Below, one piece after another: positions 1,376 to 49,946 of a stretch of 64,000 nt of DNA. The stretch comes from Nemertoderma westbladi. Taxonomy: Eukaryota; Animalia; Xenacoelomorpha. Position numbers and translations under genes: made by a program. The notes under the pieces are model-generated. The model saw only the letters and a program-made list of their open reading frames with translations. It made no database searches and had not been told where the DNA came from. The stretch's first letter is position 1; each line of letters opens with the position of its first letter. The stretch is taken from assembly GCA_032718475.1 (NCBI GenBank), contig JAUCBJ010009031.1:80960-144959 (forward strand), given 5' to 3'.

Positions 1376-4300
1376 CCACATTGCTTATATGTTGCTGTGT
1401 ATACAATATAGAGCTGCAACCATAGCACTACATTGCTTATATGTAGCTGTGTATACAATATAGAGCTGCAACCATAGCACCACATTGCTTATATGTAGCT
1501 GTGCATACAATATAGAGCTGCAACCATAGCACCACATTGCTTATATGTAGCTGTGTATACAATATAGAGCTGCAACCATAGCACCACATTGCTTATATGT
1601 AGCTGTGTATACAATATAGAGCTGCAACCATTGCACCACATTGCTTATATGTAGCGGTGTATACAATATAGAGCTGCAACCATAGCACCACATTGCTTAT
1701 ATGTATCTGTGTATACAATATAGAGCTGCAACCATAGCACCACATTGCTTATATGTAGCTGTGCATACAATATAGAGATGCAACCATAGCACCACATTGC
1801 TTATATGTAGCTGTGCATACAATATAGAGCTGCAACCATAGCACCACATTGCTTATATGTAGCTGTGTATACAATATAGAGCTGCAACCATAGCACCACA
1901 TTGCTTATATGTAGCTGTGTATACAATATAGAGCTGCAACCATAGCACCACATTGCTTATATGTAGCTGTGCATACAATATAGAGCTGCAACCATAGCAC
2001 CACATTGCTTATATGTAGCTGTGTATACAATATAGAGCTGCAACCATAGCACCACATTGCTTATATGTAGCTGTGTATACAATATAGAGCTGCAACCATA
2101 GCACCACATTGCTTATATGTATCTGTGTATACAATATAGGGCTGCAACCATAGCACCACATTGCTTATATGTAGCTGTGTATACAATATAGAGCTGCAAC
2201 CATAGCACCACATTGCTTATATGTAGCTGTGCATACAATATAGAGCTGCAACCATAGCACCACATTGCTTATATGTAGCTGTGTATACAATATAGAGCTG
2301 CAACCATAGCACCACATTGCTTATATGTAGCTGTGTATACAATATAGAGCTGCAACCGTAGCACCAGATTGCTTATATGTAGCTGTGCATACAATATAGA
2401 GATGCAACCATAGCACCAGATTGCTTATATGTAGCTGTGCATACAATATAGAGCTGCAACCATAGCACCAGATTGCTTATATGTAGCTGTGCATACAATA
2501 TAGAGCTGCAACCATAGCACCACATTGCTTATATGTAGCTGTGCATACAATATAGAGATGCAACCATAGCACCAGATTGCTTATATGTTGCTGTGTATAC
2601 AATATAGAGATGCAACCATAGCACCACATTGCTTATATGTTGCTGTGTATACAATATAGAGCTGCAACCATAGCACCACATTGTTTATATGTAGCTGTGT
2701 ATACAATATAGAGCTGCAACCATAGCACCACATTGCTTATATGTAGCTGTGTATACAATATACAGCTGCAACCATAGCACCACATTGCTTATATGTATCT
2801 GTGTATACAATATAGAGCTGCAACCATAGCACCACATTGCTTATATGTAGCTGTGTATACAAAATATTCAGCTGCAACCATAGCACCACATTGCTTATAT
2901 GTAGCTGTGTATACAATATAGAGCTGCAACCATAGCACCACATTGCTTATATGTAGCTGTGTATACAATATAGAGATGCAACCATAGCACCACATTGCTT
3001 ATATGTAGCTGTGTATACAATATAGAGCTGCAACCATAGCACCACATTGCTTATATGTAGCTGTGCATACAATATAGAGCTGCAACCATAGCACCACATT
3101 GCTTATATGTAGCTGTGCATACAATATAGAGCTGCAACCATAGCACCACATTGCTTATATGTAGCTGTGTATACAATATAGAGCTGCAACCATAGCACCA
3201 CATTGCTTATATGTAGCTGTGTATACAATATAGAGATGCAACCATAGCACCACATTGCTTATATGTAGCTGTGTATACAATATAGAGATGCAACCATAGC
3301 ACTACATTGCTTATATGTAGCTGTGTATACAATATAGAGATGCAACCATAGCACCACATTGCTTATATGTAGCTGTGTATACAATATACAGCTGCAACCA
3401 TAGCACCACATTGCTTATATGTTGCTGTGTATACAATATAGAGCTGCAACCATAGCACCACATTGCTTATATGTAGCTGTGTATACAATATACAGCTGCA
3501 ACCATAGCACCACATTGCTTATATGTAGCTGTGTATACAATATAGAGCTGCAACCATAGCACCACATTGCTTATATGTAGCTGTGTATACAATATAGAGA
3601 TGCAACCATAGCACCACATTGCTTATATGTAGCTGTGTATACAATATGGAGCTGCAACCATAGCACCACATTGCTTATATGTAGCTGTGCATACAATATA
3701 GAGCTGCAACCATAGCACCACATTGCTTATATGTAGCTGTGCATACAATATAGAGCTGCAACCATAGCACCACATTGCTTATATGTAGCTGTGTATACAA
3801 TATAGAGCTGCAACCATAGCACCACATTGCTTATATGTATCTGTGTATACAATATAGAGCTGCAACCATAGCACCACATTGCTTATATGTAGCTGTGTAT
3901 ACAATATAGAGATGCAACCATAGCACGACATTGCTTATATGTAGCTGTGTATACAATATAGAGCTGCAACCATAGCACCACATTGCTTATATGTAGCTGT
4001 GTATACAATATACAGCTGCAACCATAGCACCACATTGCTTATATGTATCTGTGTATACAATATAGAGCTGCAACCATAGCACCACATTGCTTATATGTAG
4101 CTGTGTATACAATATACAGCTGCAACCATAGCACCACATTGCTTATATGTTGCTGTGTATACAATATAGAGCTGCAACCATAGCACCACATTGCTTATAT
4201 GTAGCTGTGTATACAATATACAGCTGCAACCATAGCACCACATTGCTTATATGTAGCTGTGTATACAATATAGAGCTGCAACCATAGCACCACATTGCTT

Positions 4301-4906
4301 ATATGTAGCTGTGTATACAATATAGAGATGCAACCATAGCACCACATTGCTTATATGTAGCTGTGTATACAATATAGAGCTGCAACCATAGCACCACATT
4401 GCTTATATGTAGCTGTGCATACAATATAGAGCTGCAACCATAGCACCACATTGCTTATATGTAGCTGTGCATACAATATAGAGCTGCAACCATAGCACCA
4501 CATTGCTTATATGTAGCTGTGCATACAATATAGAGCTGCAACCATAGCACCACATTGCTTATATGTAGCTGTGTATACAATATAGAGCTGCAACCATAGC
4601 ACCACATTGCTTATATGTATCTGTGTATACAATATAGAGCTGCAACCATAGCACCACATTGCTTATATGTAGCTGTGTATACAATATAGAGATGCAACCA
4701 TAGCACCACATTGCTTATATGTAGCTGTGCATACAATATAGAGCTGCAACCATAGCACCACATTGCTTATATGTATCTGTGCATACAATATAGAGCTGCA
4801 ACCATAGCACCGCATTGCTTATATGTATCTGTGTATACAATATAGAGCTGCAACCATAGCACCACATTGCTTATATGTATCTGTGTATACAATATAGAGC
4901 TGCAAC
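1376..4906. repeat. 52-bp tandem satellite A, left arm (about 68 copies)
   Basis: Monomer CAACCATAGCACCACATTGCTTATATGTAGCTGTGTATACAATATAGAGCTG, with few variants. Confidence 0.98.
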
Positions 4907-6001
4907 TGTTCGCGGTATTTCAACTTTTTATAACGCGAGTTGAATATTTTTTGTATTAATTTAAAATGATTATTCCGATATTACTACTGGGTGCGGGACC
5001 ATGGGTTTTGGGCACATTCTATAAACTGGGGGCGATTTATGGGCGAACTTTGGGGCGACTTACAGGGTACGGGTCTAATTTCATGTTTATAAGGGCCAAG
5101 GGGGGATGGAAAATTCAAGCAGTATTCAGGTTAGCCTGATTATTATTAGGCCCTGGCCAACTTCCTGCTGCCTGTAGAGGTGGATTTGGTAACGCGCCAG
5201 GCCTAAAGGACAAGCACTGCCCTTAGCGGTCCCTGGCCAACAGCAGTTATTACGAGCCTGAAAAGGACATCGGAACGCCAGCTGCTTGTGTCAGGGACTT
5301 GCGACGGGAAACGACACGACAGACCCCTAGCCAAGCCGTACTGGTTCTTGATGATCGTTCCCTTCGGGGTTCGTGAGGGGTGGGATGGACACGCGAAAGG
5401 GTCTACCGACTAACAGAGGAAGGGTTTGACGAGGACTGCCCTTAGCGGTCTCTGGTCAACAGCAGTTATTACGAGCCTGAAAAGGACATCGGAACGCCGG
5501 CTGCTTGTACCAGGGATTTGCGACGGGAACCGACGACAGACCCCTTAGCCAAGCCGTACTGGTTCTCGATGATCGTTCCCTTCGGGGTTCGTGAGGGGTG
5601 GGACGGACACGCGATGGGGTCGAAAGACAAAGGACTGGACTCTACCGGCCTACTGACTGTTCGGAGCAGTTTCTCGGCTGCCGAAGCGACTACGAGCCTG
5701 AAATGGACTCGGAAAGCCTAGGTGGTTGGGTTTCTGCGATGAACCGACGGACCCTTAGCCAAGCCGTACTGGTTCTCGATGATCGTTCCCTTCGGGGTTT
5801 GTGAGGGGTGGGACGGACACGCGAACGGGTCCAATGACACGACAGACTCCTAGCCAAGCCGTACTGGTTCTCGATGACCGATCCCTTCGGGGTTCGAGAG
5901 GGGTGGTACGGATACGCGACAGAGTCTACCGACTGGGCCGACCCTTAGCCAAGCCGTGCTGGTTCTCGTTGATCGATCCCTTCGGGGTTCGGGAGGGGTG
6001 G
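4907..6001 (+). repeat. BEL-1 5' LTR (3'-truncated, with an extra internal unit of about 220 bp)
   Basis: Matches 15072 onward (TGTTCGCGGTATTTC...) until about 6001, where it joins Gag sequence directly. Confidence 0.92.
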
Positions 6002-9000
6002 TCACTAGGGGACCCACAGAACCTCCAGGAATTCTCAGATTCCATGAAGGATGCCTACTACACTCTGAAACCCTTAAATAAGGAGGACCAGGTGAACAAC
6101 ATTCTAAACCTCCGACAGATCGCCCGGAAGTTCCCCGGATGGCTGCAAAGTAAGTGGGCCTATAAATGCGTAGATCTCCGGCGCAGACATCCAGATCGAG
6201 ATCCCAGCTTCCTCGAAATGTCGGCATTCCTGGACGATATCTCCGAAGCCATGAATGATTCGATGTTCTCGAAACAGAGTCTCGCCAAGTTGGACGCAAT
6301 GGAGAGCAATTACCAGAGCAGGGCACCCACTCCAAACCCAAGATTCCGCCCTACTCCTGTGAGTGCGATGGCCATCAGTATGGCTGAGGACTCGGATGAC
6401 GAGGATTATGAGGAACCGACCTTAGCAGAAGAATGGGCATGCTACCTAGCGAATTGGGCACCCGAAAGGGAAGGCACCACAGCCTCCCCTATATGTCTCT
6501 TCTGCGGAGAGAAACATAAGTTGGAATTCTGTGGAAAGTTCCAGTTTGCTGAACTCGTCCCACGCTTGGAGGCGATTATGAAACACCGAGGATGCTTCCG
6601 GTGTCTTGGAACAGGTCACTACGTTCGGGATTGCGACCAAAGGTCGTGTTGTGCGGTTTGTAACGACCTACGTCATCACACGCTCCTCCACATCCCCGCG
6701 AACTTCGACTTCACTACCCTCCCCTTTCGGATCGAAGCCAAGCGAAGAGGAGAAACGAACCACGTTTCTAAAGGAACCCGGACAACCCAATGGAGAGAAA
6801 CCAACCCGTTTAAAATCTCCACCGATACACCACAAGTAACAAATATTTCAGCCACGATTAATCTTATAAATCGCCGCTACATGGTCTTCGCAAAGGTAAT
6901 CCCAGTAAGGATTCAAGGAGTCGGCAAATCCCTGACGACGCTCGCGTTCCTTGATAACGGGTCTGACGGAACCATCATCGACCGGGATTTCCTCGAGCAA
7001 CTCGGCCTAGAATATGAACCTTGTAAACGGCCCATACAAACCATCACCGATAACAGAGAGGTAGAGTCCGGGGAGGTGCAACTCCAGATGGAAGGAGTGA
7101 TGAAGGGCTACGAAACGGTTAAGTTAACCATCAAGAAGGCCTTGGTACACACAGACCTCCGAGTGCGGTTCCGACAATCGGCCGAGTACGCCCCCCTCAT
7201 ACAATTGGACCGAGACGATGTAGATCTGAGGTGTCCGCAGTTGGATGTAAACCGCATCACCCTACTGATCGGACTTGATATACCGGAACTACACATCCCC
7301 ACCGGAGATATCGCCCGATCTATAAAACAGGATGACGGATTTTATGCTGAACGAACAATAATGGGATGGACACTCTGCGGCATTAAGGAAGAAACTACTG
7401 ACACCTATACCTACCTTCCCAAATGTCAGATTAAAGAGAATGCAACCTCCGTGGGTTATTGCTCAGCTACGGACCTTGACGAGGATTTGTTTCTGGAGAC
7501 CAAGAAAACCCAACAAGAGATGACGAAATATTTTAATCTACAGACCCAGGAGTTCGCTGAAAAGTACGAAAACCCGTCCGAAGAGGATCAATATTGTATG
7601 GACGTTCTCGACCAGGCCACGTTCAAAGACGGACACTGGTGTGCACCTATGTTATGGAAGGACCCAAACAAACCAATGGCAAACAACGCCAGCATGGCAC
7701 TTAGGCGACTTAAGGGGATTCTACGCTGGCTGAATGACCAACCCGAGATAAAGGAGAAATATAATACCGTAATCCAAGGATATCTCGACGATGGATTAGC
7801 AGAAATGGTACCACGGAATGAACTGCAAGGTGGTAAAAGAACATATTATCTCCCAACCCACTATGTGGTAGAAGCCCGGAAGGGTGGGAAAATCCGAGTG
7901 GTAAATGATGCCGCCGCTATGTACCAGGGCGAATCCCTAAACAGTCAGCTTTACACGGGACCCAACATATATAGTACACTCATCGGCGTATTGATCAGGT
8001 TCAGGGAAAACCGGGTAGCATTCACCTGCGACATCAAGGCCATGTTTCATCAAGTTCGTACGCTACCAAGAGACTCAGACTGTCTACGTATCCTATGGAC
8101 GGATAAAACACTAACTCAACAGGAGATTAGTCAACTCACGATAAAGGACGTAGACATAATGCGTATGGTCGTCAGGATCTTCGGCGCTAAGGACTCGCCG
8201 GTAGCATGCAGTGACATGCTGAAGAGGACGGCAACTATGTGCGAAAACGAGTTCCCACCAACCGTCATAGAAACCATCCGACGATGCTTTTACGTGGACG
8301 ATGGATGCGCCGGCGCAGATAATGTGGACGAGGCATATCGGCTAGCAATGGGGATGGTAGAATGTCTAAAGAAAGGAGGTTTTCCGCTCGTGAAGTTCAG
8401 ATCCCACGACAAAACACTTATGGAAAAGTTTCCGGAGGACATCCGACTGGAAAATAACAAAATGTATTCGGAGGATGTGGAACACCGTGTACTCGGGATT
8501 GAATGGGACATAGAATCAGACGAATTCATTTTCAAATATAAACCCCTACCCAAGCCTATGACAAAAAGGGGATGTTTGTCGATAAAAAGCGCCATCTTCG
8601 ACCCACTAAATTTCATATCTCCAGTAACCTTGGCCGGAATGAACCTGATTAAGGAAATGTGGACAGAAGGACTGGGATGGGACAAAGAACTCCCCCCACA
8701 CCTCAGCGTCAAATGGAGAAAATGGACGGAGCAGCTCGAACACCTACATCTTATGCGGATACCTCGACCGTTCTTCCTCGATAAACTACCCACCGATATC
8801 TTCCAGCTCCATACCTTCTCGGATGCTTCGAATACCGGAATTGGCGTAGTCACCTTCTTACGAAGACTCAGCAACGATGGAAACGGCGATACGAGCTTCT
8901 TATTTTCTAAAGCCAAGACAGTATCCGGGGAATTCGTAGCAACGATTCCAAGACTCGAGCTACAGGCTGCAGTTTGGGCAGTAAGACAGAATCGCATGGT

Positions 9001-10996
9001 CATGCGGAACCTACGAATCCCCATCGAGTCTCAACACTTCTGGGTCGATTCGAGTATAGTTCTCTATTATCTCCACTCTCCATCACGGCGTCACACTACG
9101 TTTGTTGCGAACCGAGCCACAGAGATTAAACAGTGTACCGGCCGAGAACAGTGGCACCATGTGAACGGGAAAGAAAATCCAGCGGACTTATCAAGCCGAG
9201 GCGCCACCCCAAAACAACTCGGTAAAAGTAAACTCTGGCTTACAGGCCCGGAATTCCTACAGCAGCCACAATTAATATGGAGTACCCGATTCGACCCCGA
9301 ACTCGATAGCAGAAAATACTCCGAGGACGATAAAGAGATCCGTAAAGTCCATAGAAGCAACGCAGTGGAGATTTATAGCTGTCTGACTGAGCCTGCAAAG
9401 GACTCGGGCAGGCACTATAACGTTGCGACGATCATGCAACCAGCGGCGTCTTTACATCTGTTGATCGAGCGAACCTCATCAATGAGATGGCTCATCCACC
9501 ACATTATAACCCTTCGCAACTTCCTACGGTGGAAAAACAACAAGCCGATAGTTCAACGGAGTATACAAGAACTCATTATCGCGGAGAAGTGTATCGTTGG
9601 ATATGTCCAGAGAGAAAGTTTCCCCGATGAGTGGGAACAACACAGTGCGGGCAAGACCTTGAAACCGGATAGCCCAGTCTACCAACTGAGACCAATGATG
9701 GGAGAGGACGGACTGATCCGACTGAATACCCAGATGGCAAACGCCCCGGTCGAATATGAGGTTAAATACCCGGCGCTTCTGCCCGGAACTTCAACACTAG
9801 CCAAGCTATTAATTCAACAATGTCACGAGGAGAACCATCACGCAGGACAAAACTGGATTATAGCTAATATAAGACAAAGATATTGGATCACACACATCCA
9901 GCCACTGATCCGGAAAGTGTTGAAACGTTGCTTTGTCTGCAGAAGATATCTAGCGCCACCACTCACACAAAAGATGGCCGACTTACCAGCCACCCGTCTA
10001 CAGCCCGATTCCCCACCATTCTACGTCACCGGAGTGGACTGTTTCGGTCCGTTTACGGTCATCGAACGACGATCCAACATCAAATGCTGGGGGGCCATAT
10101 TTACATGCCTTAGGTCTAGGGCAATCTACCTAGACATTGTGGTGAACCTTACGCAACACGCATTCATCAACACTCTGCATCGGTTCGTGGCAAGCAATGG
10201 GACATGTCGTCACATGTATTCCGATAATGGCAAAAACTTTGTGGGAGGAGAAAGAGATCTTAGAGAGGCGATCGAGGGATGGTTTACCGATAACACCGCA
10301 TCCCAAGTCTGGAAGGAACACCAGATACAGTGGCACTTCCAGACCCCCTTAGCACCCCATACGAGCGGGGTATGGGAGAAACTGATCGACCTAGTGAAAC
10401 GATCCATGTGCGTCGCTCTAGGAGACACCCGGGTAACCCATGACACCCTCCGCACAACATTCTGCGAGATCACGGCTACCCTGAACAACCGACCCATTGT
10501 CCCTATCCGCGACAACCCCACAGACCTGGAGCCCCTTACTCCTAATCACCTACTGGGGAGACCTAAAACTCATGTTCTCCCGGAGACAATGTTTCCGGAT
10601 CCCAACGATATTGCAAGACATACAAACTGGAAGAAGGCCCAAGCGTTGGCAGCGCATTGGTGGAGAATCTGGGCCCAGGAGTACCTCATAACCCTCCGGA
10701 CCAGGAGGAAGTGGAACAACACCTACAGGAATGTCGAAGTTGGCGACATGGTACTAGTAAAAGAAGACCTTAAAGACCGCGTCCACTGGCCTGTGGCGCG
10801 AGTTGTGACAATACATCCGAGTAAAGACGGACTTGCGAGGACTGTGACGATACGAACGGCAAAGGGCCACTACCAACGCCCTATCCAGAGGCTGTGCCTT
10901 CTCGAAGGCAATGATAGCGGTGACTCTACGAGAGGTGATAAGTTCCCTACTCAAGATCCTGCTTCAGACATTGGTGACAATTACAAATGCGTTTAA
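5801..10996 (+). CDS. BEL/Pao Gag-Pol polyprotein, N-terminally deleted; the first ~67 codons are LTR-derived
   Basis: Zinc knuckles CLFCGEKHKLEFC, CFRCLGTGHYVRDC and CAVCNDLRHHTLLH; protease FLDNGS; RT DIKAMFHQV, FGAKDSP, YVDD; RNase H FSDAS, PRLELQAA, WVDS; integrase HHAG..CFVC, GVDCFGP, SDNGKNF, GVWE. Confidence 0.95.
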   Translation: MRGGTDTRTGPMTRQTPSQAVLVLDDRSLRGSRGVVRIRDRVYRLGRPLAKPCWFSLIDPFGVREGWSLGDPQNLQEFSDSMKDAYYTLKPLNKEDQVNNILNLRQIARKFPGWLQSKWAYKCVDLRRRHPDRDPSFLEMSAFLDDISEAMNDSMFSKQSLAKLDAMESNYQSRAPTPNPRFRPTPVSAMAISMAEDSDDEDYEEPTLAEEWACYLANWAPEREGTTASPICLFCGEKHKLEFCGKFQFAELVPRLEAIMKHRGCFRCLGTGHYVRDCDQRSCCAVCNDLRHHTLLHIPANFDFTTLPFRIEAKRRGETNHVSKGTRTTQWRETNPFKISTDTPQVTNISATINLINRRYMVFAKVIPVRIQGVGKSLTTLAFLDNGSDGTIIDRDFLEQLGLEYEPCKRPIQTITDNREVESGEVQLQMEGVMKGYETVKLTIKKALVHTDLRVRFRQSAEYAPLIQLDRDDVDLRCPQLDVNRITLLIGLDIPELHIPTGDIARSIKQDDGFYAERTIMGWTLCGIKEETTDTYTYLPKCQIKENATSVGYCSATDLDEDLFLETKKTQQEMTKYFNLQTQEFAEKYENPSEEDQYCMDVLDQATFKDGHWCAPMLWKDPNKPMANNASMALRRLKGILRWLNDQPEIKEKYNTVIQGYLDDGLAEMVPRNELQGGKRTYYLPTHYVVEARKGGKIRVVNDAAAMYQGESLNSQLYTGPNIYSTLIGVLIRFRENRVAFTCDIKAMFHQVRTLPRDSDCLRILWTDKTLTQQEISQLTIKDVDIMRMVVRIFGAKDSPVACSDMLKRTATMCENEFPPTVIETIRRCFYVDDGCAGADNVDEAYRLAMGMVECLKKGGFPLVKFRSHDKTLMEKFPEDIRLENNKMYSEDVEHRVLGIEWDIESDEFIFKYKPLPKPMTKRGCLSIKSAIFDPLNFISPVTLAGMNLIKEMWTEGLGWDKELPPHLSVKWRKWTEQLEHLHLMRIPRPFFLDKLPTDIFQLHTFSDASNTGIGVVTFLRRLSNDGNGDTSFLFSKAKTVSGEFVATIPRLELQAAVWAVRQNRMVMRNLRIPIESQHFWVDSSIVLYYLHSPSRRHTTFVANRATEIKQCTGREQWHHVNGKENPADLSSRGATPKQLGKSKLWLTGPEFLQQPQLIWSTRFDPELDSRKYSEDDKEIRKVHRSNAVEIYSCLTEPAKDSGRHYNVATIMQPAASLHLLIERTSSMRWLIHHIITLRNFLRWKNNKPIVQRSIQELIIAEKCIVGYVQRESFPDEWEQHSAGKTLKPDSPVYQLRPMMGEDGLIRLNTQMANAPVEYEVKYPALLPGTSTLAKLLIQQCHEENHHAGQNWIIANIRQRYWITHIQPLIRKVLKRCFVCRRYLAPPLTQKMADLPATRLQPDSPPFYVTGVDCFGPFTVIERRSNIKCWGAIFTCLRSRAIYLDIVVNLTQHAFINTLHRFVASNGTCRHMYSDNGKNFVGGERDLREAIEGWFTDNTASQVWKEHQIQWHFQTPLAPHTSGVWEKLIDLVKRSMCVALGDTRVTHDTLRTTFCEITATLNNRPIVPIRDNPTDLEPLTPNHLLGRPKTHVLPETMFPDPNDIARHTNWKKAQALAAHWWRIWAQEYLITLRTRRKWNNTYRNVEVGDMVLVKEDLKDRVHWPVARVVTIHPSKDGLARTVTIRTAKGHYQRPIQRLCLLEGNDSGDSTRGDKFPTQDPASDIGDNYKCV

Positions 10997-11270
10997 ACCC
11001 TTCTCATCATGTTGACAAACTCTTTAAACTGTGATTTAACGACAATGAAAATGGACCCCCCTTAAACCAACTGTAACCACGCACTGGTATTTGTGTTTCC
11101 TCGTGTGTTATGTGGAGTCCAGCGTCACCCTGCAGATGTTTTGACTGACGCAGGGTCGTTTATGTATTGTTTACCCTGATTTTGGTCATCGGGACCGACG
11201 ATATTTGATTATTGGAAATGGTAAAGATTTGAAGTGGAATTCATTGTATTCATTGCAGTATGTTATGTTG

Positions 11271-11688
11271 TCCGTTGCGTGCGCAGTTCGGGGCGTAGGC
11301 GGTGTAACTAGTCCAGCTGTAGATCCCGGATTGCCGCGCAACACCCCCTCTATCCCGTTATTCTGGTGGGTCCATGGTGCATCCACATGACTTCGACGAT
11401 AGAGGGTTTTATGTTCTCAGTCGCGTTATTCTGGTGGGACCGTTGCGTGGATTTTGGGGCGTAGGCGGTGTAACTAGTCCAGCTGTAGATCCCAGAATGT
11501 TGCGTAACCCCATCCCACATGACTTCGTCGACTGAGCTTTATGTTGTTGGAAGTGTTATTCTGGTGGGTCCCTGGTGCATCCACGTGACTTCACTCCCAG
11601 CGTCTTCATTGTCCGTTACGTGTGCAGTTTGGGGAGTAGGCGGTGTAACTAGCCCAGCTGTAGATCCCAGATTGCCGCGTAACACCCC
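11271..11688 (+). other. Three copies of a ~75-nt putative structured RNA element, interleaved with hairpin modules, between pol and the accessory ORF
   Basis: Copies at 11271-11348, 11440-11511 and 11612-11688. GTTGCG/CGCAAC becomes GTTACG/CGTAAC in copy 3 (compensatory). A GGGG/CCCC pairing crosses that stem. Confidence 0.55.
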
Positions 11689-12296
11689 TTCCACAACAAA
11701 GATTTCCCAAAGAAGATGATTGAATGTAGTTGGAAATGATGAAAAGGATCAGACAACTCTACTATAAACCTGAATGATGACGTGTATGATGATGAAAATG
11801 TAATGATGCGCACCCTGGTGCTGCGCTTATAACAAATGATGATAGCCGGGGGGCTATAACCCCAATGATGATGTGGAAATAAACAAAATTGAGAATAAAT
11901 GGTGGAACTAAATGATGAAATAAATGTGGAAATAAATGAAATGTGAAATAAATGGTGGAAATAAATGTGATGAAATGTGTTGAAATAAATGAAATGAGAT
12001 GAAATAATAATGAGAAATGAAAAAAGACAAAAAAAAAGGTATAAAAAGGTCTAAAGAAAAGAATTATTGGAAAAATGAGGACATAAAAAGTCATAAAAAC
12101 TGGTTGGATATTAATGTATAGTTATAGTAACTGTAAATGCTGAATGTATTAGCAATAAGATGATAGATGCCTATATAGCAATGTTATTAATAAACTGAAC
12201 TAAAAATAAAACTGAATTATTCTGCAATCACTATAGTTTCAGACTTTCTGTACTTATAATTAACTGATCTAATTTGTAACGGATATAATCGTAAAT

Positions 12297-14897
12297 ATGG
12301 ACCCAAATCGCCAAATTATCGGCGAATTACGTAACATGATAGATCTACTGGAATATTCGCAACCCGGATCCCCTGACTTTGATACAAATTGGAGCACCCT
12401 GCTAAATGAGAACGTGCGAGTCGTTAAATTCACCGGGCGAGAGGGACCGGATTCCAAGAATCTACGAGCCCTCCGGTTAGCCGATGCTAGTACGAGACTG
12501 AAAAGAACTCGGAACGCAAAGGCAACCGGAGGGGACGATTCGTCGTTTTGGGAAACGTTCCGGCAGAGCGTCTACAGATCCCGATGTTTGATCTACGACA
12601 ACGAGAGAAACGCGACGCCCACCTCGAAAGCGATTACGTTGGCGAGATGTCAAAGTTTCGTCGACGACAAGAGTACGTACCTCGCCCACTGGAGAAACCT
12701 GTCGGAGTGTACGGCGATGCTTCGAGAGGAACGTATATCGACCATCCAAAATCGCGACGACTACCAAGAAAAATACGGGGCGAAAGAATACGGTCGATCC
12801 TTGGTCGTCGTCCTCGGAACCCTGGACGGTTTGGTATTGGTGTGTCGAATATTTCCGACACCCAGATAGGAAGTGCAGGCAGCCGGAGCGATCTGGTTGC
12901 TACCTCCGGAAATCCAAAAGATCCTCTTCGACTTCGACGTCATTAAAATCGGGTCGGATATAAAGGCGGACGTCCGGAACGACTACGCGAACGCTCCTTC
13001 AGGAAGAAACCGACGAGACAACCTCAACGCCCTTAGCCATTGCGTCGACACTCAAACGCTACTACCCTGGTTACGATTCGCCGAGTTCATGCGAGGATTC
13101 CAAGAGGTGAGACCGACGAAATCCGGGATCGGCTACCTCGCTGTGCTAAACGGCGGCATCGACTTCAAACCCCAGAAATTCCGGGACTATAATAAAATAT
13201 ATGGTGGATACCCGGGATTAGAAATAAAGAGCAAGCGAGAGGGTCGATGGAAGGTAGTTGATCGGAAGTGGACGATACACCAAAGGTGGGAGAATCCCGA
13301 TCGACGGAACTACGTCTACGTCGTTATGGAGTGCTACACCGTCGCTAAGTTTATCTGTAAAACTCTCGATAACCTTATTACGGCGGTTCCTCTTTCCTTC
13401 GTCAACTACGACTGGAACGAGGTTATAAACCACGCGTTCAAAACGGTCGAGAACATCACACCGGGAGAGACTAAAACACTCGCTGTTATCGATTCCTGGG
13501 ACGAGAGCGGACCTTACGACATCCCTACGATTACCGAACTTCTCGGTGCGGAGGAGCCTCTGATTTCTTCGGAAGGGGAAGAAATATGGCTAAATGAGGG
13601 TGTTCTACTCTCCACCCCGAAGCGATAACTCGAGCCGGAGGCCGCTTACCAACCGGCCGCCAAACGGGTTGCCTCCACCGAACCAACGACGGAAGCGGGC
13701 GTTTCCTCACCACTCGGCTTCGGTAGCCCTGCGAGGGAGTTGGTTACTACCTTCGCGTTAAACGACTTCGGCGATACGTGCCAAAGGTTATCCCCGTATC
13801 CTTTCCCGGGTGGCGAAGACTGGTCGTCGGAGATTCCGAGTACCAGCAATCAACGGACCCACTCAGCGATATTGGTCGAGAAGGGCCCCAGCGCTGCGCC
13901 AACTCCCGACGATGTCCTTGGAATCCCTCCGTCGAAAACCCCGGCACCTCTTCGCCGACCAGCGGTGGCTACTACACCCTCCGTTCCTCAGGATCCTATG
14001 CGACTAACCCGTTGGTACGCCGAGCAAACCGAATGGATCCACCGCCAGAAACGGTCGTCCAAGTTGAGACCGACGGGACACAAAGAAGGTTATCGTAGCG
14101 AGGACCTACTACGCAAAAGCCCAGCCTTCCGCGTGCTACCGACCACCGCGAATATTCAGAAGAGCGACCGACGACTCGAGTATCACGTCGGTGTCCCGAT
14201 TCCAATATTCCCCGGTCGAGAGATGCAGTTGGAGGTGTGCGGCGACTGTGGTTCGGAGCAGTGCCCACGCGGTAGAAGGAATCGGGTTACCGATTCATGC
14301 CTCCAGCTCCTCGGGATACTCTATTGCCCATACTGCGCGATATCGGGCCACGACGTTTCGGTCTGTCCGATCCTATATAACCTCTGCACCACGTGCGGTT
14401 TCCGTGGACATTCCTCTAGCCCCCGCTGCTATATCAAATGTCCTACCAAAGACGTTACCGCTATGGGATATATGGTCATGTTTGAAACATACGCAAACAG
14501 CCACATAAAGACCAAGGTTCGGAGAAACGCTCGGAATATCGCGCAGGAGATGGCGTGCGGGTACTTCTCCTTCCCGGAACGCCTCCACACATCGGCCACG
14601 CTGCCTTTCCATTACGTGGATTTGTTGCTGAGCGCTGGATTATTCGGCCCATTCGAAGTCATTAGACGCTTATACTCGTATAAAGAGGAGTTCGGTGACG
14701 GAGAGTGGTTCCTCGAGGCTCGCAACTCCGAGTTGGAACGACGAACCAATATGATCCCGATGCCATCGAAAGGAAGAGCCGCCAGGAGACAAGCCGAAGC
14801 GTTGCTCACGATGGATGTTGACGCTCCTCTACCAGCTATAGCGATCGACGAGAGCCGACGGGCGAAGAGGCGAAAGGCGTATCAGAGAAAGAAATAG
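12297..14897 (+). pseudogene. BEL-1 accessory ORF: DEDDy-like 3'-5' exonuclease plus Cys/His zinc-knuckle module (866 codons, two in-frame stops)
   Basis: ORFs 12297-12869, 12873-13628 and 13740-14897 share one frame, broken only by TAG 12867-12869 and TAA 13626-13628. Motifs: LIYDNE, LPPEIQKILFD..VIKIGSDIKAD, CVDTQ, SGIGYLA, YVVME, CPYCAISGHDVSVCP, CTTCGFRGHSSSPRC. Confidence 0.8.
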
Positions 14898-15062
14898 TGG
14901 ATCGGGATATTCCAGGAACATTTATCGAACATTTATTTTTATACATATATATATAAACTCTAGGCCAAATTAATTAAAACTATGCAATATTAAATTTGGG
15001 TTTTTTTTATTGGGAATGACCTACGCAAACTCAATCTACCGATAGACCTCACGAAGGTCATT

Positions 15063-15071
15063 GGGGGGGAC
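15063..15071 (+). promoter_or_regulatory. Polypurine tract of BEL-1
   Basis: GGGGGGGAC immediately precedes the TG of the 3' LTR. Confidence 0.8.
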
Positions 15072-16388
15072 TGTTCGCGGTATTTCAACTTTTTATAACG
15101 CGAGTTGAATATTTTTTGTATTAATTTAAAATGATTATTCCGATATTACTACTGGGTGCGGGACCACGGGTTTTGGGCACATTCTATAAACTGGGGGCGA
15201 TTTATGGGCGAACTTTGGGGCGACTTACAGGGTACGGGACTAATTTCATGTTTATAAGGGCCAAGGGGGGATGGATAATTCAAGCAGTAATCAGGTTAGC
15301 CTGATTACTATTAGGCCCTGGCCAACTTCCTGCTGCCTGTAGAGGTGGATTTGGTAACGCGCCTGGCCTAAAGGACAAGGACTGCCCTTAGCGGTCCCTG
15401 GCCAACAGCAGTTATTACGAGCCTGAAAAGGACATCGGAATGCCAGCTGCTTGTGTCAGGGACTTGCGACGGGAAACGACACGACAGACCCCTAGCCAAG
15501 CCGTACTGGTTCTCGATGATCGTTCCCTTCGGGGTTCGTGAGGGGTGGGACGGACATGCGATGGGGTCGAAAGACAAAGGACTAGACTCGACTAGACTCT
15601 ACTGGCCTACCGACTGTTCGGAGCAGTTTCTCGGCTGCCGAAGCGACTACGAGCCTGAAATGGACTCAGAAAGTCTAGGTGGTTGGGTTTCTGCGATGAA
15701 CCGATGGACCCTTAGCCAAGCCGTACTGGTTCTCGATGATCGTTCCCTTCGGGGTTCGTGAGGGGTGGGACGGACACGCGAACGGGTCCACCGACACGAC
15801 AGACTCCTAGCCAAGCCGTACTGGTTCTCGATGACCGATCCCTTCGGGGTTCGAGAGGGGTGGTACGGATACGCAACAGAGTCTACCGACTGGACCGACC
15901 CTTAGCCAAGCCGTGCTGGTTCTCGATGATCGATCCCTTTGGGGTTCGGGAGGGGTGGAACGGACACGCGACAGGGTCGACCGACACCGACACTACGGCA
16001 TCAAGACTAGGACCGAGGGAAAATCTGGGGAACATTAGTTAGGCTAAAATCTGAGCGAACAGTGGGTAATTAAATAATATACTGTAGGGATTTATATTGT
16101 CGTGTATAATTATTGTGAATATTTGGTGTATATTGATTTGGGAAAGCCCAAAATTATTCTCAATCAGGATTGTAACAGGATTGTACATTGTTACAGGATT
16201 GTAACAGGGTTAACTACATTAAAGAATATATCCAACCAATGCAGCTTTTTCTCAACCGCAATCCTGCATCTAAGAAATTCCTCCTTCTCCACAATCAATA
16301 TCCGGTGACTGGCCGGGACTCCGTGGTCTGTAAAGCCCCGCCTCCAGCATCGGCGTTTTTCCCCCCTGGTGTCGGGATAACGGCAACA
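15072..16388 (+). repeat. BEL-1 3' LTR (1317 bp, complete)
   Basis: TGTTCGCG...GGCAACA followed by TSD GCAAC; contains four copies of the CCCTTCGGGG-type hairpin module (the fourth reads CCCTTTGGGG). Confidence 0.95.
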
Positions 16389-18911
16389 GCAACCATAGCA
16401 CCACATTGCTTATATGTAGCTGTGCATACAATATAGAGCTGCAACCATAGCACCACATTGCTTATATGTATATGTGTATACAATATAGAGCTGCAACCAT
16501 AGCACCACATTGCTTATATGTAGCTGTGTATACAATATAGAGCTGCAACCATTGCACCACATTGCTTATATGTAGCTGTGTATACAATATAGAGCTGCAA
16601 CCATAGCACCACATTGCTTATATGTATCTGTGTATACAATATAGAGCTGCAACCATAGCACCACATTGCTTATATGTAGCTGTGCATACAATATAGAGAT
16701 GCAACCATAGCACCACATTGCTTATATGTAGCTGTGCATACAATATAGAGCTGCAACCATAGCACCACATTGCTTATATGTAGCTGTGTATACAATATAG
16801 AGCTGCAACCATAGCACCACATTGCTTATATGTAGCTGTGTATACAATATAGAGCTGCAACCATAGCACCACATTGCTTATATGTAGCTGTGTATACAAT
16901 ATAGAGCTGCAACCGTAGCACCAGATTGCTTATATGTAGCTGTGCATACAATATAGAGATGCAACCATAGCACCAGATTGCTTATATGTAGCTGTGCATA
17001 CAATATAGAGCTGCAACCATAGCACCAGATTGCTTATATGTAGCTGTGCATACAATATAGAGCTGCAACCATAGCACCACATTGCTTATATGTAGCTGTG
17101 CATACAATATAGAGATGCAACCATAGCACCAGATTGCTTATATGTAGCTGTGCATACAATATAGAGCTGCAACCATAGCACCAGATTGCTTATATGTAGC
17201 TGTGCATACAATATAGAGCTGCAACCATAGCACCAGATTGCTTATATGTAGCTGTGCATACAATATAGAGCTGCAACCATAGCACCACATTGCTTATATG
17301 TAGCTGTGCATACAATATAGAGCTGCAACCATAGCACCACATTGCTTATATGTAGCTGTGCATACAATATAGAGCTGCAACCATAGCACCACATTGCTTA
17401 TATGTAGCTGTGTATACAATATAGAGCTGCAACCATAGCACCACATTGCTTATATGTAGCTGTGCATACAATATAGAGCTGCAACCATAGCACCACATTG
17501 CTTATATGTAGCTGTGCATACAATATAGAGCTGCAACCATAGCACCACATTGCTTATATGTAGCTGTGCATACAATATAGAGCTGCAACCATAGCACCAC
17601 ATTGCTTATATGTAGCTGTGCATACAATATAGAGCTGCAACCATAGCACCACATTGCTTATATGTAGCTGTGCATACAATATAGAGCTGCAACCATAGCA
17701 CCACATTGCTTATATGTATCTGTGTATACAATATAGAGCTGCAACCATAGCACCACATTGCTTATATGTTGCTGTGTATACAATATAGAGCTGCAACCAT
17801 AGCACCACATTGCTTATATGTAGCTGTGCATACAATATAGAGCTGCAACCATAGCACCACATTGCTTATATGTAGCTGTGTATACAATATAGAGCTGCAA
17901 CCGTAGCACTAGATTGCTTATATGTAGCTGTGCATACAATATAGAGATGCAACCATAGCACCACATTGCTTATATGTAGCTGTGCATACAATATAGAGCT
18001 GCAACCATAGCACCACATTGCTTATATGTAGCTGTGCATACAATATAGAGCTGCAACCATAGCACCACATTGCTTATATGTAGCTGTGCATACAATATAG
18101 AGCTGCAACCATAGCACCACATTGCTTATATGTAGCTGTGTATACAATATAGAGCTGCAACCATAGCACCACATTGCTTATATGTAGCTGTGCATACAAT
18201 ATAGAGCTGCAACCATAGCACCACATTGCTTATATGTATCTGTGTATACAATATAGAGCTGCAACCATAGCACCACATTGCTTATATGTATCTGTGTATA
18301 CAATATAGAGCTGCAACCATAGCACCACATTGCTTATATGTTGCTGTGTATACAATATAGAGCTGCAACCATAGCACCACATTGCTTATATGTAGCTGTG
18401 CATACAATATAGAGCTGCAACCATAGCACCACATTGCTTATATGTAGCTGTGCATACAATCATAGCACCACATTGCTTATATGTATCTGTGTATACAATA
18501 TAGAGCTGCAACCATAGCACCACATTGCTTATATGTTGCTGTGTATTCAATATAGAGCTGCAACCATAGCACCACATTGCTTATATGTAGCTGTGCATAC
18601 AATATAGAGCTGCAACCATAGCACCACATTGCTTATATGTAGCTGTGTATACAATATAGAGATGCAACCATAGCACCACATTGTTTATATGTAGCTGTGT
18701 ATACAATATAGAGCTGCAATCATAGCACCACATTGCTTATATGTAGCTGTGCATACAATATAGAGCTGCAACCATAGCACCACATTGCTTATATGTAGCT
18801 GTGCATACAATATAGAGCTGCAACCATAGCACCACATTGCTTATATGTAGCTGTGTATACAATATAGAGCTGCAACCATAGCAGCACATTGCTTATATGT
18901 AGCTGTGTATA
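16389..18911. repeat. 52-bp tandem satellite A, right arm (about 48 copies)
   Basis: Same monomer, resuming in register after the TSD. Confidence 0.98.
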
Positions 18912-20000: not shown

Positions 20001-22127
20001 CTCCACCATAACAGGGAAATAACTCCACCATCAGGTAGCCGTAGACGTGGTTCCCCAGCAGAACATCTAACCGACCTTGACTTTGCTGTAAAAGCTTTTG
20101 TGGGATAACTGATACGTTTGCCTATGCTGGCCAGTTCCCCCCAGGCGCTGGAATACTCTAAAAAACGTTTTCTAACTGTATATATATTCCCCTCGCCCGC
20201 AAGGTACCTTTACAGGTGTTTTAACGGACATAAAAATCATTCTGCTATATACGTGTTTTAGCGGACATGGTAAGACAAAAAACTTGTAATGCATCAACCA
20301 CCTTTCACAGTTTAGCCGTGATGATTCATATTACGACATCTAGCAGCTGGTTGCTGACATGGAAACAGCCATTGGCCGCGTGGTTCTTTGTTTGGCTTGG
20401 GCCAATCAGGGCGGTTTTTCCTGTCGACGTGTAGCTTTCCTGCCGATCATAAGGAGAGTGTTCTGTCTTACTGTTTTAGAGTTGATACTTTGTTGTTATT
20501 GCTGTCTAAGCCAGAAACACCGGCATTTTTGGATAGATACTGCTGTACCGTAAACTGCTTGAATTATCGAAAGTATAAACTGTTACCTAACCTCACTAAT
20601 CTCACGAATCGAATATCACCTAACTCATTAATCATATTGTTTGTACTGTTATTTTACCGTCAGTTATTAATTGTAAATATTTGTTGATGGAAATATTGCT
20701 ATTTGGATAATACGGATAAATCACCCAATTCCCAATTTTCTTGATAACACTACAGGTTAGAGAGACCGGCTATATATAACAATTGCGATTTATATTAATG
20801 TGGTGTGTATTGAATCCAATGTTATTTAGCAGACCCTACGTGAGTCAATTACTGCTCTCTTTATGTGTGATCAAATGTACTGACTGTCGGCAGAATAGTG
20901 TGTATGATTGTGATTGGTAACAAAGTATTTCCTAAAGAATACGCTTTATACTTCAATCCCAAGCAGTATCGTTGCGTTTAGTATAAGTCTTAGTTCTGTT
21001 TAAATAGATAAAGCGCCACGTCCTAAAGGAACTGTTAATATTTCCCGAAAGCCAATAATATCTGTCAGAGATTAATTATTAACGATCTATCGAATAATAC
21101 AGTAAGTTTACACTGCAACCTTACACTGTAATAATACAATTCAAGCATCCGAATTCAGTCTCCCGGGTGTAGATCCATCGGGTGAATGATCGCGCATGGG
21201 CTGATTTCGGCTAATGTTTTGCGTATTAGCATAAATTATTGTCGTATGCTAAAGTGGTTTTAATTAACTAAAAGACATATAAATTTTGGCAGGTTAAACT
21301 GCTAAAGGTCTTCGAAAGCGCGAACATTTGCAGATGACCTTGGTTTACTGTCAGAGACATTAGAAGGAGCACAGAAGCTGCTATCTAGCTTAGAGGAGGC
21401 TGCATCTAGTGTTGGCCTCTTTGTGAATAGCACAAAGACCAAAATTCTGACAGTAAACATGGATTCAGATCAGCAGAAAATTGATCGGGATAACATTCAA
21501 TCGCTGGATGGACTGGTAAGTCATGTGAACGACTTCTGCTACCTTGGATCACGGGTTCGGAGGTCTGCTGAAGATCTCCGAATTCGCAAAGGGAAAGCCT
21601 GGTCCGCCATCCACAAGCTATCCAGGATCTGGAAGAGCTCTGACATCTCATGCTCTTTAAAGGTACGCCTTTTCCGTGCAGCAGTGGAGCCTGTGCTGCT
21701 CTATGGCAGCCCATGCTGGGCTCTAACTGCTGAAGACACCAGGTCCTTGGATGGCACATACACCAGGATGCTTCGCCGGGTGCACAACATAGCATATGAT
21801 GCACACATAAGCAATGAGGTGTTATATAAATATGGTAACATCTCATTGCCAAGACCTAGCATCACCCTGCAGAAACGCCGTCTAATGCTTGCTGGGCACT
21901 GTTTCCGCCGGCAGGATCAACCTGTACACAACCTTGTGCTGTGGCATCCTGCTGGCGAGAATAGACGTGGTGGACAGCCAATGACTTTCCTCAAACACCT
22001 GCTCAAGGACACAGGACTTGAGAACAGGAATGAATTAGGAAATTGTATGGCTGACCGCAAGATCTGGGGGCGCTATGTTTCTGGTGCCGCCGGCAATGCA
22101 CCCTAGTGCAAGCCGATCATCATCATC
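20001..22127 (+). mobile_element. 5'-truncated RTE-like LINE (second subfamily) interrupted by a solo LTR
   Basis: TDLDFA|DDL is split by the LTR; RT C-terminus at 21423-22106; (CAT)n tail; 13-bp TSD ACCCCGAAGATTT (19988-20000) / ACCCCAAAGATTT (22128-22140). Confidence 0.88.
20087..21326 (+). mobile_element. Solo LTR (1240 bp) related to the BEL-2 LTRs
   Basis: TGTAAAAGCTTTTG...AAAGCGCGAACA is homologous but diverged relative to the reverse complement of 35750-36931; TSD TTTGC (20082-20086 and 21327-21331). Confidence 0.92.
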
Positions 22128-23919: not shown

Positions 23920-26900
23920 GCACATGCAGCATTGGCAAATAGACCAAATCTCTAACCACATCATCCGTTGCCACTTCTCATGTTCTGGAAGACTGGCTAA
24001 GAAATTTCCTAAGGTGATTCTGATTGTGTGCTACTCTCTAACTAGTGTTGACCCTGTAGAGGGGTGGAAAATTTCTACTACAATCTACAAGCAGCTACTG
24101 ATGGAGTGGATCAATATGCATTTTTAACATTCCTGGGAGACTTTAATGCAAGTCTGCATCAAACACCTACATCGCCCTGGGTCTATAGCGATAGAGTTGT
24201 AAGCAGATTCAATTCCACTTCATTACCCAACAGAAAATGGGACCAGTGGCATTTATCAATATGTTGGGGATACGAGATAACCAATATTAATCTCGTATCA
24301 TAACCAACATTGGGGGGGGGGGGGGGGCGACACAAGCCCCAAAGCCACAGAGAGAGGTCAAACCACCTCGGAGGGAATACAGCTAGTAGAGGCTAGCAGC
24401 GGAGGGGAAACACTCCCAGGGAGTGCCAAGGTGACAAGTAGTATATTAGCCAATAGTGGGGAAGGAAGCACGTGATAGGGAACAGGAAAGCATCCATTGG
24501 GTAGAGGGCCAAAGTAGAGTAAGAAGGTGAACCAATATTCAATGTATTAATCATATATTATCTTACATTACTGGTTTACCGGTCAGTTGTGTTATTCAGT
24601 TCAGTAAGTGCAGACTGGTCATAGTTAATGACCGCCACCGCCATACCAGTAACAATTTATCTGTATTTCTGCTTTAATCATATATTGTGCTATTACTGCC
24701 TATATTAACTAATATCGAAAGACAACAGGAACTTTTACAGTTTTCCCAGTCGGCCTCGGCCAAAGCCAATAGCATGATCCCCAGCAGAACGGTGACGCGT
24801 ACTTTAATAACCCGGTCGGGATCTCTGATCCCGTCGCAAGAGTTAACCGAAATTCCACCCATCTTCAGGATTTGATCTCTGGAAATGGATTGTTTTCGGC
24901 TGGAACCCAGTTCAAGAAGCGAACTGGAAAGCTATGGACTTATAGTGGACCCAGTGTTCACAAGTCCCAGATAGACCATATTCTGTTTCGTATGAAATAC
25001 AGGAGCTCTATAAAGACTGTAATGCATTTACTCTTCGATCCTTCTCCAGTGATCACTGCCTTATTGTGGCCAAGGTAAGACTTAGTCTGCGTGCTAGCAG
25101 AACAACGAAATCTACCTTGCCGCAGCATGACTGGTCCTCCCTGTTGCAACAGCCAACTTCACACTACAGCTGAGAAACATGTATGAGGTTCTTGCCTCTG
25201 AGGCGACAGATCACTGCGAGGGCTATACTGCCTTCACAGAAGCAGTAAAGTTGCAGAAACAGTTCCTGTATACCTCGAAACAGGAAATGGGCCCCCTGGA
25301 CTGACTACAAAATTCTGAAGTGCCGAAATGACCTCTATAAGGCACAGAAAGAGTCCCGACTCAAACAGACTACAGCGGCCAAGAATGCAGTTAAGGCTGC
25401 ATCTAGGTCCCTGATCAGGCAGTACTCTGTTATTCTACAGGAGCTAATAAACCAACAGGTGGATGCCATCAAAGATGCTGACGACAGCAGGCAATCACAC
25501 CAGGCATAGAAATCGATCAAATTGCTGACTGGGCGGAAAAGCCAACCAACCACCAAGGTTAAGGCTGAATCACCAGCCGATCGCCTCAATGGTTGGAAGG
25601 CCCACTTTGAAAAGCTCCTCCCTCAATAATGGCAGGGTATTGCCTGATGACTTTATAGAAGTAAAAGTGTCTGAGTCTGTACTCCCAGATATTCCCATTG
25701 GCGATATCTCCTTTGCAGAACTGAAGGCTGCTGCGAAGAGCATTAAGACCAATCGTGCCAGTGGAGTAGATGGTGTTCCCCCTGAGGTCTTTAAAATACC
25801 TGAGTGTTTAAAGCTCATCTATCCCATCATAGTAGACATGTACTGAACAACAAGAGTCCCACAAGAAATGAAATCAAATAAGTTGGTGCCAGTTCCTAAG
25901 AAGGGCAACCTAACACTCTATGGTTCTTTTCGGGGAATCTCATTGATCTCGATTGCTGCATAGCTATACAATAGAATTCTATTAAATCGCATCAGGGATC
26001 CCATTGAGAGACTGCTCCGTGGAAATCAGAATGGGTTCCGTAAAGGTCGTGGGACCATGGAGCCCATTTTGGCACTTATAAGGATAATTTATTGAAGAGT
26101 TATCAATTAAGAAAGACAGGCATCTGGCTTTTATCTTTGTTTACTTCTTCAAGGCCTTTTATTCAGTCTCTCGCTCACGTATGTTCAGCATACTTTCATT
26201 ATATGGGATTCCTGGTGAAATTATTGCAGCAATCAGATCAGTATACGAGCAATGGTTCGACAACATTTGTGTCTACTGTTGACGGTGACTGTTTGTAATA
26301 TTTATTCAAACTAAAGAAATAACTTACATGCTCTATCAAGTTTACAGAATTTTTGTTACTTAACATATTTTGTAATAAACTGATAGCAAGGAACTTGCAA
26401 AACTTAGGAATTGTACTATGAATTTTCAACAGGGAAGTTATAAGTTCCAGTGGTATTAGTAGTTCCAGTACTCCTCTATGGGAGTCCATGCTGGGCTCTA
26501 ACTGCTGAGGACACCAAATCTCTGGATGGCACATTCACAAGAATGCTACGCCGGGTTCATTGTGTCAAGTACAATGCACACATCTCCAAACAGACACTAT
26601 ATAACATTGGAGGTGTCTCATTGGTTCCCCCAAGCTTGACACTAGAACAAAGTCGCCTCCTCTTTGCAGGATATTGCTTTCGCCTTGAGGACCAGCCATT
26701 GCATAATGTTGTACTTTGGCAGCCTCATTGAGTGAATAAGCATGGTGGACAGCCCATGACTTTCTTGAGACGCATCTTAAAGGACACTGGCCTTGAAGAT
26801 GCGGATGATCTAGCAAAACTCATGGGTGATAGGTAGTTGTGGCGGCGCATTTTTGTTGACAAGCCGGCACAGCATTCTTAAAATTGCAGCTGCAATGCAG

Positions 26901-26929
26901 CATGCCGGTCCTAGTAGTAGTAGTAGTAC
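23920..26929 (+). mobile_element. Decayed near-full-length RTE-like LINE (APE endonuclease + RT)
   Basis: APE motifs FLGDFNA and LWTYSGP..SQIDHIL; RT near-identical to 1-370 and 915-1375, with the middle replaced at about 26290-26455; frameshifts and stops; (TAG)n tail at 26912-26928. Confidence 0.88.
24198..24838. mobile_element. Solo LTR (641 bp) inside the LINE endonuclease region
   Basis: TGTAAG...GTCGCA ends; TSD AGAGT (24193-24197 and 24839-24843); homologous to 18912-19481. Confidence 0.85.
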
Positions 26930-33610: not shown

Positions 33611-33834
33611 GTGTGTCTGTAGCTTGGTGTATTTTGGAACTTCACACCAAGATCATCATAGAACTGAGCTATTTCTAGTTTTGATGCATCGAGTGCGTGC
33701 TGAAAACACAGGGTTATGGAATTATGAAGATCTAGGTGCACTATTTTGCTTCAGAGATTATACAGATATGGGACAATGAATCGTGATTCAAAATAAGCGA
33801 TAACTTACTCTACACTATTCCATTTTCGACTTAC

Positions 33835-36931: not shown

Positions 36932-37008
36932 CCGCTCCCAGAAAATGGGATTCAAGTCTATAAATATACAAAATCACAGTTTCTAATATACGTAAATACT
37001 CTAAACAG

Positions 37009-44243: not shown

Positions 44244-44252
44244 CAGGAAATA

Positions 44253-49760: not shown

Positions 49761-49946
49761 TGAGCAGACTTACACGTCTTCTGCTCAATATTAACTTACA
49801 TGTAAATAAAACCGACAGAAATAAGTAAAATCTCAATAAAAAACCAGGGCGGCCGTTCCCTGATTAAGTACTAAGACCTACCGGTATACAATAATCAAAA
49901 TCGAATAATATTAATGTACTTATACTGGAAGTACCGGTTAGGATGG

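Follow-up and report, generated by a model that had tools for sequence, protein, structure and literature searches.

A predicted DnaQ-type exonuclease fused to zinc knuckles as cargo of BEL/Pao retrotransposons

Retrotransposons of the BEL/Pao group encode gag and pol with an occasional env, and the word 'nuclease' is absent from the main text of the survey that describes them (PMC3118150). Exonuclease cargo in LTR retrotransposons has previously been reported, in the literature covered here, from rotifers only and with no function assigned. The rotifer elements Juno, Vesta and Athena carry DEDDy-type ORF3s that are altered to DEED, and their function is described as not established (PMC5408684; also PMC6431247 and PMC6338049). 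Among cellular enzymes, TbRND depends on its zinc knuckles to bind RNA and to trim it efficiently (PMC7797062), while Nibbler/MUT-7 is described as a trimmer of piRNAs and miRNAs (PMC11347159). The arenavirus ExoN provides a precedent for a captured exonuclease serving against host defence (PMC7968707). A literature search made mostly of titles and the openings of abstracts, outside Repbase, Dfam, GyDB and subscription journals, found no exonuclease cargo in BEL/Pao elements.

The window analysed here, a stretch of 64,000 nucleotides from Nemertoderma westbladi, contains a BEL/Pao element at 4907-16388 that measures 11.5 kb despite internal deletions. It is flanked on both sides by the 5-bp target-site duplication GCAAC (4902-4906, inside a 52-bp satellite, and 16389-16393). 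The 5' LTR (4907-6001, plus strand) begins with TGTT and has lost its 3' end together with the leader and the 5' part of gag. With these parts deleted, this copy is dead. A polypurine tract (15062-15071, plus strand) precedes the 3' LTR (15072-16388, plus strand; 1317 bp), which runs from TGTT to AACA. Placing the 3' LTR end at 16061 (GCGAACA) was considered and dropped, since the target duplication fits 16388. The two LTRs are 95.8% identical over 887 aligned bases, and 294 of their first 300 bases are identical. They also contain internal repeats of ~95 bp with a short hairpin-like core (5209-6001 and 15374-15992), and the 5' LTR has a duplication of ~208 bp.

The gag-pol remnant of this element (5783-10996, plus strand), whose first ~74 codons are LTR sequence in frame, encodes knuckles, a protease, an RT with YVDD, RNase H and an integrase. 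Pfam matches in the ORF include Peptidase_A17 (E-value of 1e-38), DUF5641 (E-value of 1.5e-28), Integrase_H2C2, the protease and the knuckles. Judged by domain content, this set of Peptidase_A17, DUF5641 and integrase is the BEL/Pao signature. RVT_1 gave no score in the ORF, where the RT was assigned from its YVDD motif, and DUF1759 had no match there. The element has a single gag-pol in the order PR-RT-RH-IN, as does the metagenome locus L001 discussed below. Rfam returned no matches in 4900-16400 of the window.

Past the gag-pol stop and a non-coding spacer of 1.3 kb (10997-12296, plus strand) lies the cargo gene, in the place that env takes in retroviruses. It is a frame of 866 codons (12297-14897, plus strand) that ends 175 bp upstream of the 3' LTR. 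The original prediction, made from the sequence alone, had described exactly such a separate frame 1.3 kb past pol, and 1301 bp separate it from the gag-pol stop (10996). In this copy, two in-frame stops, at 12867 and 13626, interrupt the frame; the prediction implied them solely by speaking of a 'stop-repaired' protein. A TTTCAG acceptor-like site is found ~60 bp upstream of the cargo ATG, the context of which is A-rich. The cargo (12297-14894) has a CpG observed/expected ratio of 1.38, versus 0.96 for gag-pol, with no CpG depletion. The full cargo sequence alone had no match in Pfam or among PDB sequences, and viral contigs yielded none. Likewise, none of 2364 candidates from a word-indexed protein search with residues 80-400 matched, and profile searches of the same index gave the input proteins alone (1/7987 and 2/1832). 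Given its homologues in the window and among 1.84 billion representative sequences, the frame is, by sequence comparison, beyond chance. The features of an Env (signal peptide, TM anchor, fusion-protein fold) were not found in the cargo, in line with the earlier view that it is not an env gene. Its single hydrophobic window (residues 168-186, Kyte-Doolittle 2.1) forms two core β-strands in the model (pLDDT ~90), so that the absence of a TM segment is upheld.

One of these homologues, not spotted in the original prediction, lies in a second BEL element of the window (35750-51415, minus strand; 15.7 kb). The LTRs of this element (1182 bp) are 99.9% identical, its duplication is GTCCC, and the RT region is missing from its pol; it is a defective copy that moved very recently. 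Its cargo (37009-41261, minus strand) occupies the same slot and strand behind a BEL integrase, 78 bp upstream of the 3' LTR, and is frameshifted between ExoI and ExoII. BLASTP comparison of the cargo with the window homologues gave E-values of 5e-10 and 4e-6, and the integrases of the two elements are 34% identical. The second cargo has an N-terminal extension of ~700 residues (39300-41261, minus strand), with a Cys/His cluster, a stretch that resembles a coiled coil, and no Pfam match. No obvious TGG-starting primer-binding site was seen directly past the 5' LTR of the second element (50194-50233, minus strand).

Both BEL elements are located within tandem arrays, of 52-bp units at 1371-18911 and of 33-bp units at 34251-57493. 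As this holds for two of two elements, they may target satellites or survive there. Other repeats in the window include a solo LTR-like sequence at 20188-21326, on the opposite strand and 73% identical to the LTR of the second element, and 3' fragments of non-LTR retrotransposons (RVT_1 and DUF6451) at 1-1375, 21306-22106, 25914-26927 and 32673-33612. Arrays based on 21-bp units at 27358-31620 and 61486-62467 have an extreme GC skew of about -0.5 to -0.6 and give rise to long spurious ORFs, and units of 161 bp form a long imperfect palindrome at 58059-58836.

Searching the 1.84 billion representatives yielded nine unnamed hits (best E-value 8.7e-13). The C-terminal knuckle module is present in all nine and the exonuclease region in five (two absent from the training alignment), while three hits consist of the knuckle module alone. 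Our census of carriers is based on one metagenome scan, with 153 candidate stretches and five confirmed loci, and in four of the five the cargo is found behind a BEL integrase, on the same strand. In the near-identical loci L001 and L002, an open cargo frame comes immediately after an intact BEL gag-pol of 2256 residues. The end of a BEL integrase lies directly upstream of a decayed cargo in L003 and L005, and L004 has an intact cargo with no pol in the 8 kb upstream. The latter three loci form one family with about 66% DNA identity. Altogether, the sequences place the cargo in about four BEL lineages, whose pol proteins are 28-34% identical. Short direct and inverted repeats lie on either side of the cargo ORF of L004 (8037-11149), which may belong to a non-autonomous carrier. 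In the relative P0005, a decayed exonuclease accompanies two copies of the whole knuckle module.

Contigs from four DNA runs in three studies were used to examine region 10000-15070 in 30 bins; there was no RNA run among the sequencing runs listed. All bins were covered in all four runs, with up to 5,462 contigs aligned, most of them less than 99% identical, and the cargo family is thus multi-copy and highly diverged. In each run, the entire contig depth over both stop positions disagrees with the window, which makes the stops private to this copy. Another comparison, with a contig 17% diverged from the window, gave a net length change of +3 bases. One contig (12540-12997, 458 bases) shows 19 differences, and the 18 outside the stop comprise 13 synonymous and five non-synonymous changes. 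The neutral evolution that would have spoken against the original prediction was not seen, with an omega of 0.11-0.17 (p 1e-5 to 3e-4) in the latter, one of nine aligned contigs, over its 458 bases. Between L001 and L002, the cargo differs in four synonymous and five non-synonymous codons, too few for showing selection, and gag-pol in 35 synonymous and 15 non-synonymous codons.

A passenger that decays neutrally in this copy, be it a fragment of a host gene or a nested element, would account for the two stops here, the frameshift in the second element, the decay in L003 and L005, and the L004 cargo that has no pol nearby. It would also account for five of the 15 listed joints being low-depth deletions within the cargo, as are expected of other decayed copies. 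Against such a passenger stand the recurrence of the same slot in about four BEL lineages, the low omega, the private nature of the stops and the near-constant length of the diverged contig. Moreover, none of the 12 indels among those listed (of 51) falls in a coding frame. We consider a passenger extremely improbable. The claim that the cargo is encoded by the element and kept by selection is borne out by the same slot in several BEL elements and by low dN/dS in one comparison.

Motifs resembling those of DnaQ-type exonucleases had been noticed in the cargo, and their positions proved correct: YDNE at 12594-12605, VDTQ at 13044-13055, SGIGYLA at 13122-13142 and YVVME at 13317-13331. The ExoII region was also located where claimed, with IKIG at 12942-12953 and D225 at 12969-12971. 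The predicted DnaQ-fold domain spans residues ~80-388 (12534-13460, plus strand), with D101/E103 in ExoI, D225 in ExoII, and Y341 and E345 in ExoIII. As the single-sequence searches of Pfam and PDB were empty, the exonuclease is visible by profile and model alone. A nine-row domain profile matched EXD2 (E-value of 6e-6), with ExoI and ExoII aligned and ExoIII as a weak second stretch; the EXD2 residues are those given in PMC6648332. With a seven-row full-length profile, matches to EXD2, Egalitarian and TbRND were obtained at E-values of about 1e-3. A profile of those relatives alone that end ExoIII in Asp found the window cargo at an E-value of 3e-8 (best of 200 shuffles 1.5e-3).

The structure model was built from 19 alignment rows, guided by alignment A5; without an alignment, pLDDT was just 33. 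Its confident blocks are residues 80-100, most of 170-300, 340-390 and 670-790, and pLDDT in the exonuclease core is 70-92. In a fold search of 48,161 chains, the best 50 matches were all DnaQ-type. Nibbler was the top fold match (Z 11.6, rmsd 3.9, 202/218 aligned), and scored Z 12.1 (rmsd 3.5, 202/219 aligned) in a second structural comparison. Foldseek alone gave no match below an E-value of 0.001 in PDB or BFVD. Both the EXD2 profile match and the model point to the DnaQ/RNase H-like fold that the original prediction expected. NrnC, RNase D, Rrp6 and Pol I exonucleases lie within about 1-2 Z of Nibbler, a near-tie that leaves the fold unable to choose RNA over DNA, and Pfam gave no match to the domains accompanying Nibbler/MUT-7.

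Because Pol I-type exonucleases reach Z 9-10, the fold would suit an enzyme that proofreads reverse transcription in support of long elements. Nidoviruses offer a precedent (PMC7968707), and the two elements of the window are 11.5 and 15.7 kb long even with internal deletions. Yet the domain is not fused to the RT, and most of what makes these elements longer is the cargo gene, the spacers and the long LTRs. The knuckles suggest single-stranded RNA instead, the family is highly diverged, and the active site has decayed in some relatives. Proofreading, the weakest of the three functions raised in the original prediction, seems to us very unlikely.

The DEDDy motif match claimed originally holds for the ExoI D-x-E, the ExoII Asp and the ExoIII Tyr, but not for the ExoIII Asp, which is Glu here (Y-x3-E). 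D101/E103 is the top site for the relatives' ExoI block, equalled in three of 500 shuffles (10/500 without the second element). It aligns with ExoI in alignment A5 and lies in a strand at residues 97-104 (pLDDT ~92). In structural alignments with epsilon, phi29, T7, ExoI and ISG20 (first aligned residues, gapless), D101 falls on the presumed ExoI aspartate. Alignment A4 disagrees and leaves the window protein without ExoI. The copy-specific ExoI deletion that A4 implies was rejected, as contigs of the family cross this region with no large indel and D101 is preferred by the block score. Past ExoI is an insertion of ~60 residues (12615-12794, plus strand) with low model confidence, which is present in family contigs too. 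These residues are absent from relatives and resemble the segment upstream of ExoI in relatives, and may represent an insertion or an old duplication.

Across the family, the ExoII Asp is found in six of the nine rows that have a residue there. The last ExoIII ligand is Glu in four of ten rows, Asp in four and another residue in two. Glu-type proteins (Y-x3-E) are the window cargo, the second element, P0002 and P0003, while L001, L004, L005 and P0009 are Asp-type (Y-x3-D). The full canonical DEDDy set is present in L001, L002 and P0009. One or more ligands are missing from P0005, P0006, P0010 and L004, the last of which lacks the ExoII Asp. Still, D-x-E, D and Y are preserved across proteins that are just 17-29% identical. 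An exonuclease tree of seven rows, with two short pieces omitted and three long branches, separates Glu-type from Asp-type with a support of 94/96, just below the bar. By its motifs, the window protein is a DEDDy-derived variant and a predicted nuclease. Catalysis may be dispensable, given the ligand losses and the hits with knuckles alone.

C-terminal to the exonuclease domain are a Pro/Ser/Thr-rich linker (13494-14231, plus strand), predicted to be disordered (pLDDT mostly 25-30), and a module at 14238-14666 (plus strand) in which three Cys/His clusters are combined with a conserved helical subdomain (F/W-E-x-x-A...G-F/Y-F; pLDDT 74-87 in most blocks). The gene ends in a basic, putatively NLS-like tail (14859-14894, plus strand). 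Linker and tail agree with the original description, with 29% P+S+T and eight K/R in 12 residues, respectively. The description of three Cys/His clusters needs an amendment: two of them fit CX2CX3-5HX4-9C, while the first consists of four Cys and is without the His of most relatives. All three clusters fit the tandem CCHC pattern in the second element, P0002 and P0009, compared with two in the window cargo. Over ten sequences, the module has 12 invariant Cys/His/Tyr columns. A knuckle profile matched Air2 (E-value of 7e-7), Lin28 and retroviral NC, all of which are RNA binders. The module is, on this pattern, of the CCHC zinc-knuckle type and predicted to bind RNA. Basic C-terminal clusters occur in the four Glu-type proteins (6-9 K/R of 12), while the three Asp-type proteins tested have 3-4 K/R of 12 and no basic cluster.

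Taken together, the gene is almost certainly a BEL-borne cargo combining an exonuclease fold with zinc knuckles, and by analogy RNA is probably its substrate or ligand. If the protein binds RNA without cutting it, or cuts it weakly, it might act as an adaptor like Egalitarian or EXD1 that moves, exports or shields the RNA of the element. The Asp-to-Glu change at ExoIII, the decayed sites in four relatives and the better conservation of the knuckle module are consistent with such an adaptor. Egalitarian is among the top profile and Foldseek hits, and EXD1 and Maelstrom are cited as inactive derivatives (PMC5408684). However, D-x-E, D and Y are kept despite the low identity of the proteins, Glu is still a carboxylate, and three relatives retain the full canonical set. 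We regard an adaptor as distinctly unlikely.

An enzyme acting on the element's own nucleic acid could, ahead of strand transfer or integration, trim the 3' ends of RNA or the overhangs of cDNA, with NC-like knuckles bringing it to the genomic RNA or into particles. The resemblance of the knuckles to retroviral NC fits this, and the description of the rotifer elements favours 3'-end processing of element RNA and notes that DnaQ folds act on RNA and ssDNA alike (PMC5408684). Conversely, BEL/Pao elements are described as gag-pol with an occasional env (PMC3118150), so replication needs no such gene. The cargo also has an ORF to itself, and the four Glu-type proteins carry an NLS-like tail. Processing of the element's own ends is unlikely, if less so than an adaptor.

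Use against small RNAs appears likeliest, because BEL elements can replicate with gag-pol alone and the small-RNA trimmer Nibbler is among the closest folds. The explanation that we favour overall, and that may quite possibly be right, is an accessory exonuclease of BEL/Pao elements that uses its knuckles and trims RNA 3' ends against silencing. Counter-silencing by RNA trimming is proposed as the role of the cargo somewhat more tentatively still. The decayed window copy represents an accessory gene common to an old BEL/Pao group. Its product might be made as a free protein from a spliced mRNA, as the TTTCAG site suggests, and in the Glu-type branch the basic tail could mediate nuclear import. 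As in TbRND, single-stranded RNA would be held by the knuckles, which would pass its 3' end to the active site, and the nuclease would be active despite Glu as its last metal ligand. Host small RNAs or their precursors would be the targets, weakening silencing of the element. A more specific version is doubtful: that an ancient and widespread BEL/Pao branch encodes a Nibbler-like small-RNA trimmer, joined in a single chain to Air2-like knuckles that feed it, as an enzymatic suppressor of piRNA/siRNA silencing, with one sub-branch having D-E-D-E and a nuclear signal.

If true, a transposon enzyme that acts on piRNAs would fill a gap in the picture of the arms race between animal hosts and transposons. 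Intact natural Glu- and Asp-type versions make counter-silencing, end processing and RNA transport directly testable. Since such cargo, built differently, turns up in several BEL/Pao lineages that are far apart, it is a recurring strategy and not a rotifer oddity.

Compared with the described BEL/Pao elements (Belpaoviridae), the carriers share LTRs, a 5-bp duplication, a single gag-pol, Peptidase_A17 and DUF5641, and differ from those in the survey in having, instead of env, a third gene for a protein with an enzyme fold. The cargo resembles Nibbler/MUT-7/EXD3 and EXD2, with Nibbler as the best structural and EXD2 as the best profile match. Unlike Nibbler and EXD2, it is intronless and element-borne, has the ExoIII Glu and is 11-14% identical, and it showed no match to the HEAT-like NTD, MUT7-C, TM anchor or HNH of Nibbler/MUT-7/EXD2. 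Its knuckles are closest to Air2 of TRAMP, which works with Rrp6, itself a fold match (Z 8.6-9.3). Unlike that pair, the cargo is one polypeptide without an HRDC or PMC2NT match, and the knuckle likeness may be generic. TbRND (PDB 7C42) has the same order of exonuclease and CCHC knuckles (profile E-value of 5e-4, mostly on the knuckles; Z 8.7-9.3). It is described as a cellular mitochondrial enzyme with four knuckles adjoining the domain (PMC7797062), whereas the cargo has three clusters past a linker of ~250 residues and a helical subdomain, with no sign of orthology. The rotifer precedent mentioned in the original prediction is real and comprises the Juno/Vesta LTR and Athena/Terminon elements of bdelloid rotifers (PMC5408684; PMC6431247). 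Like the rotifer ORF3 as described there, the cargo is an RNase D-like DEDDy domain in a separate ORF past pol, with no TM or signal, and one acidic ligand has turned to Glu (DEED in rotifers versus D-E-D-E, at ExoIII, here). Its carrier is BEL/Pao, a group unnamed among the four rotifer clades of PMC5408684, and, unlike the ORF3 of that description, it is fused to a triple Cys/His module and found in several unrelated datasets.
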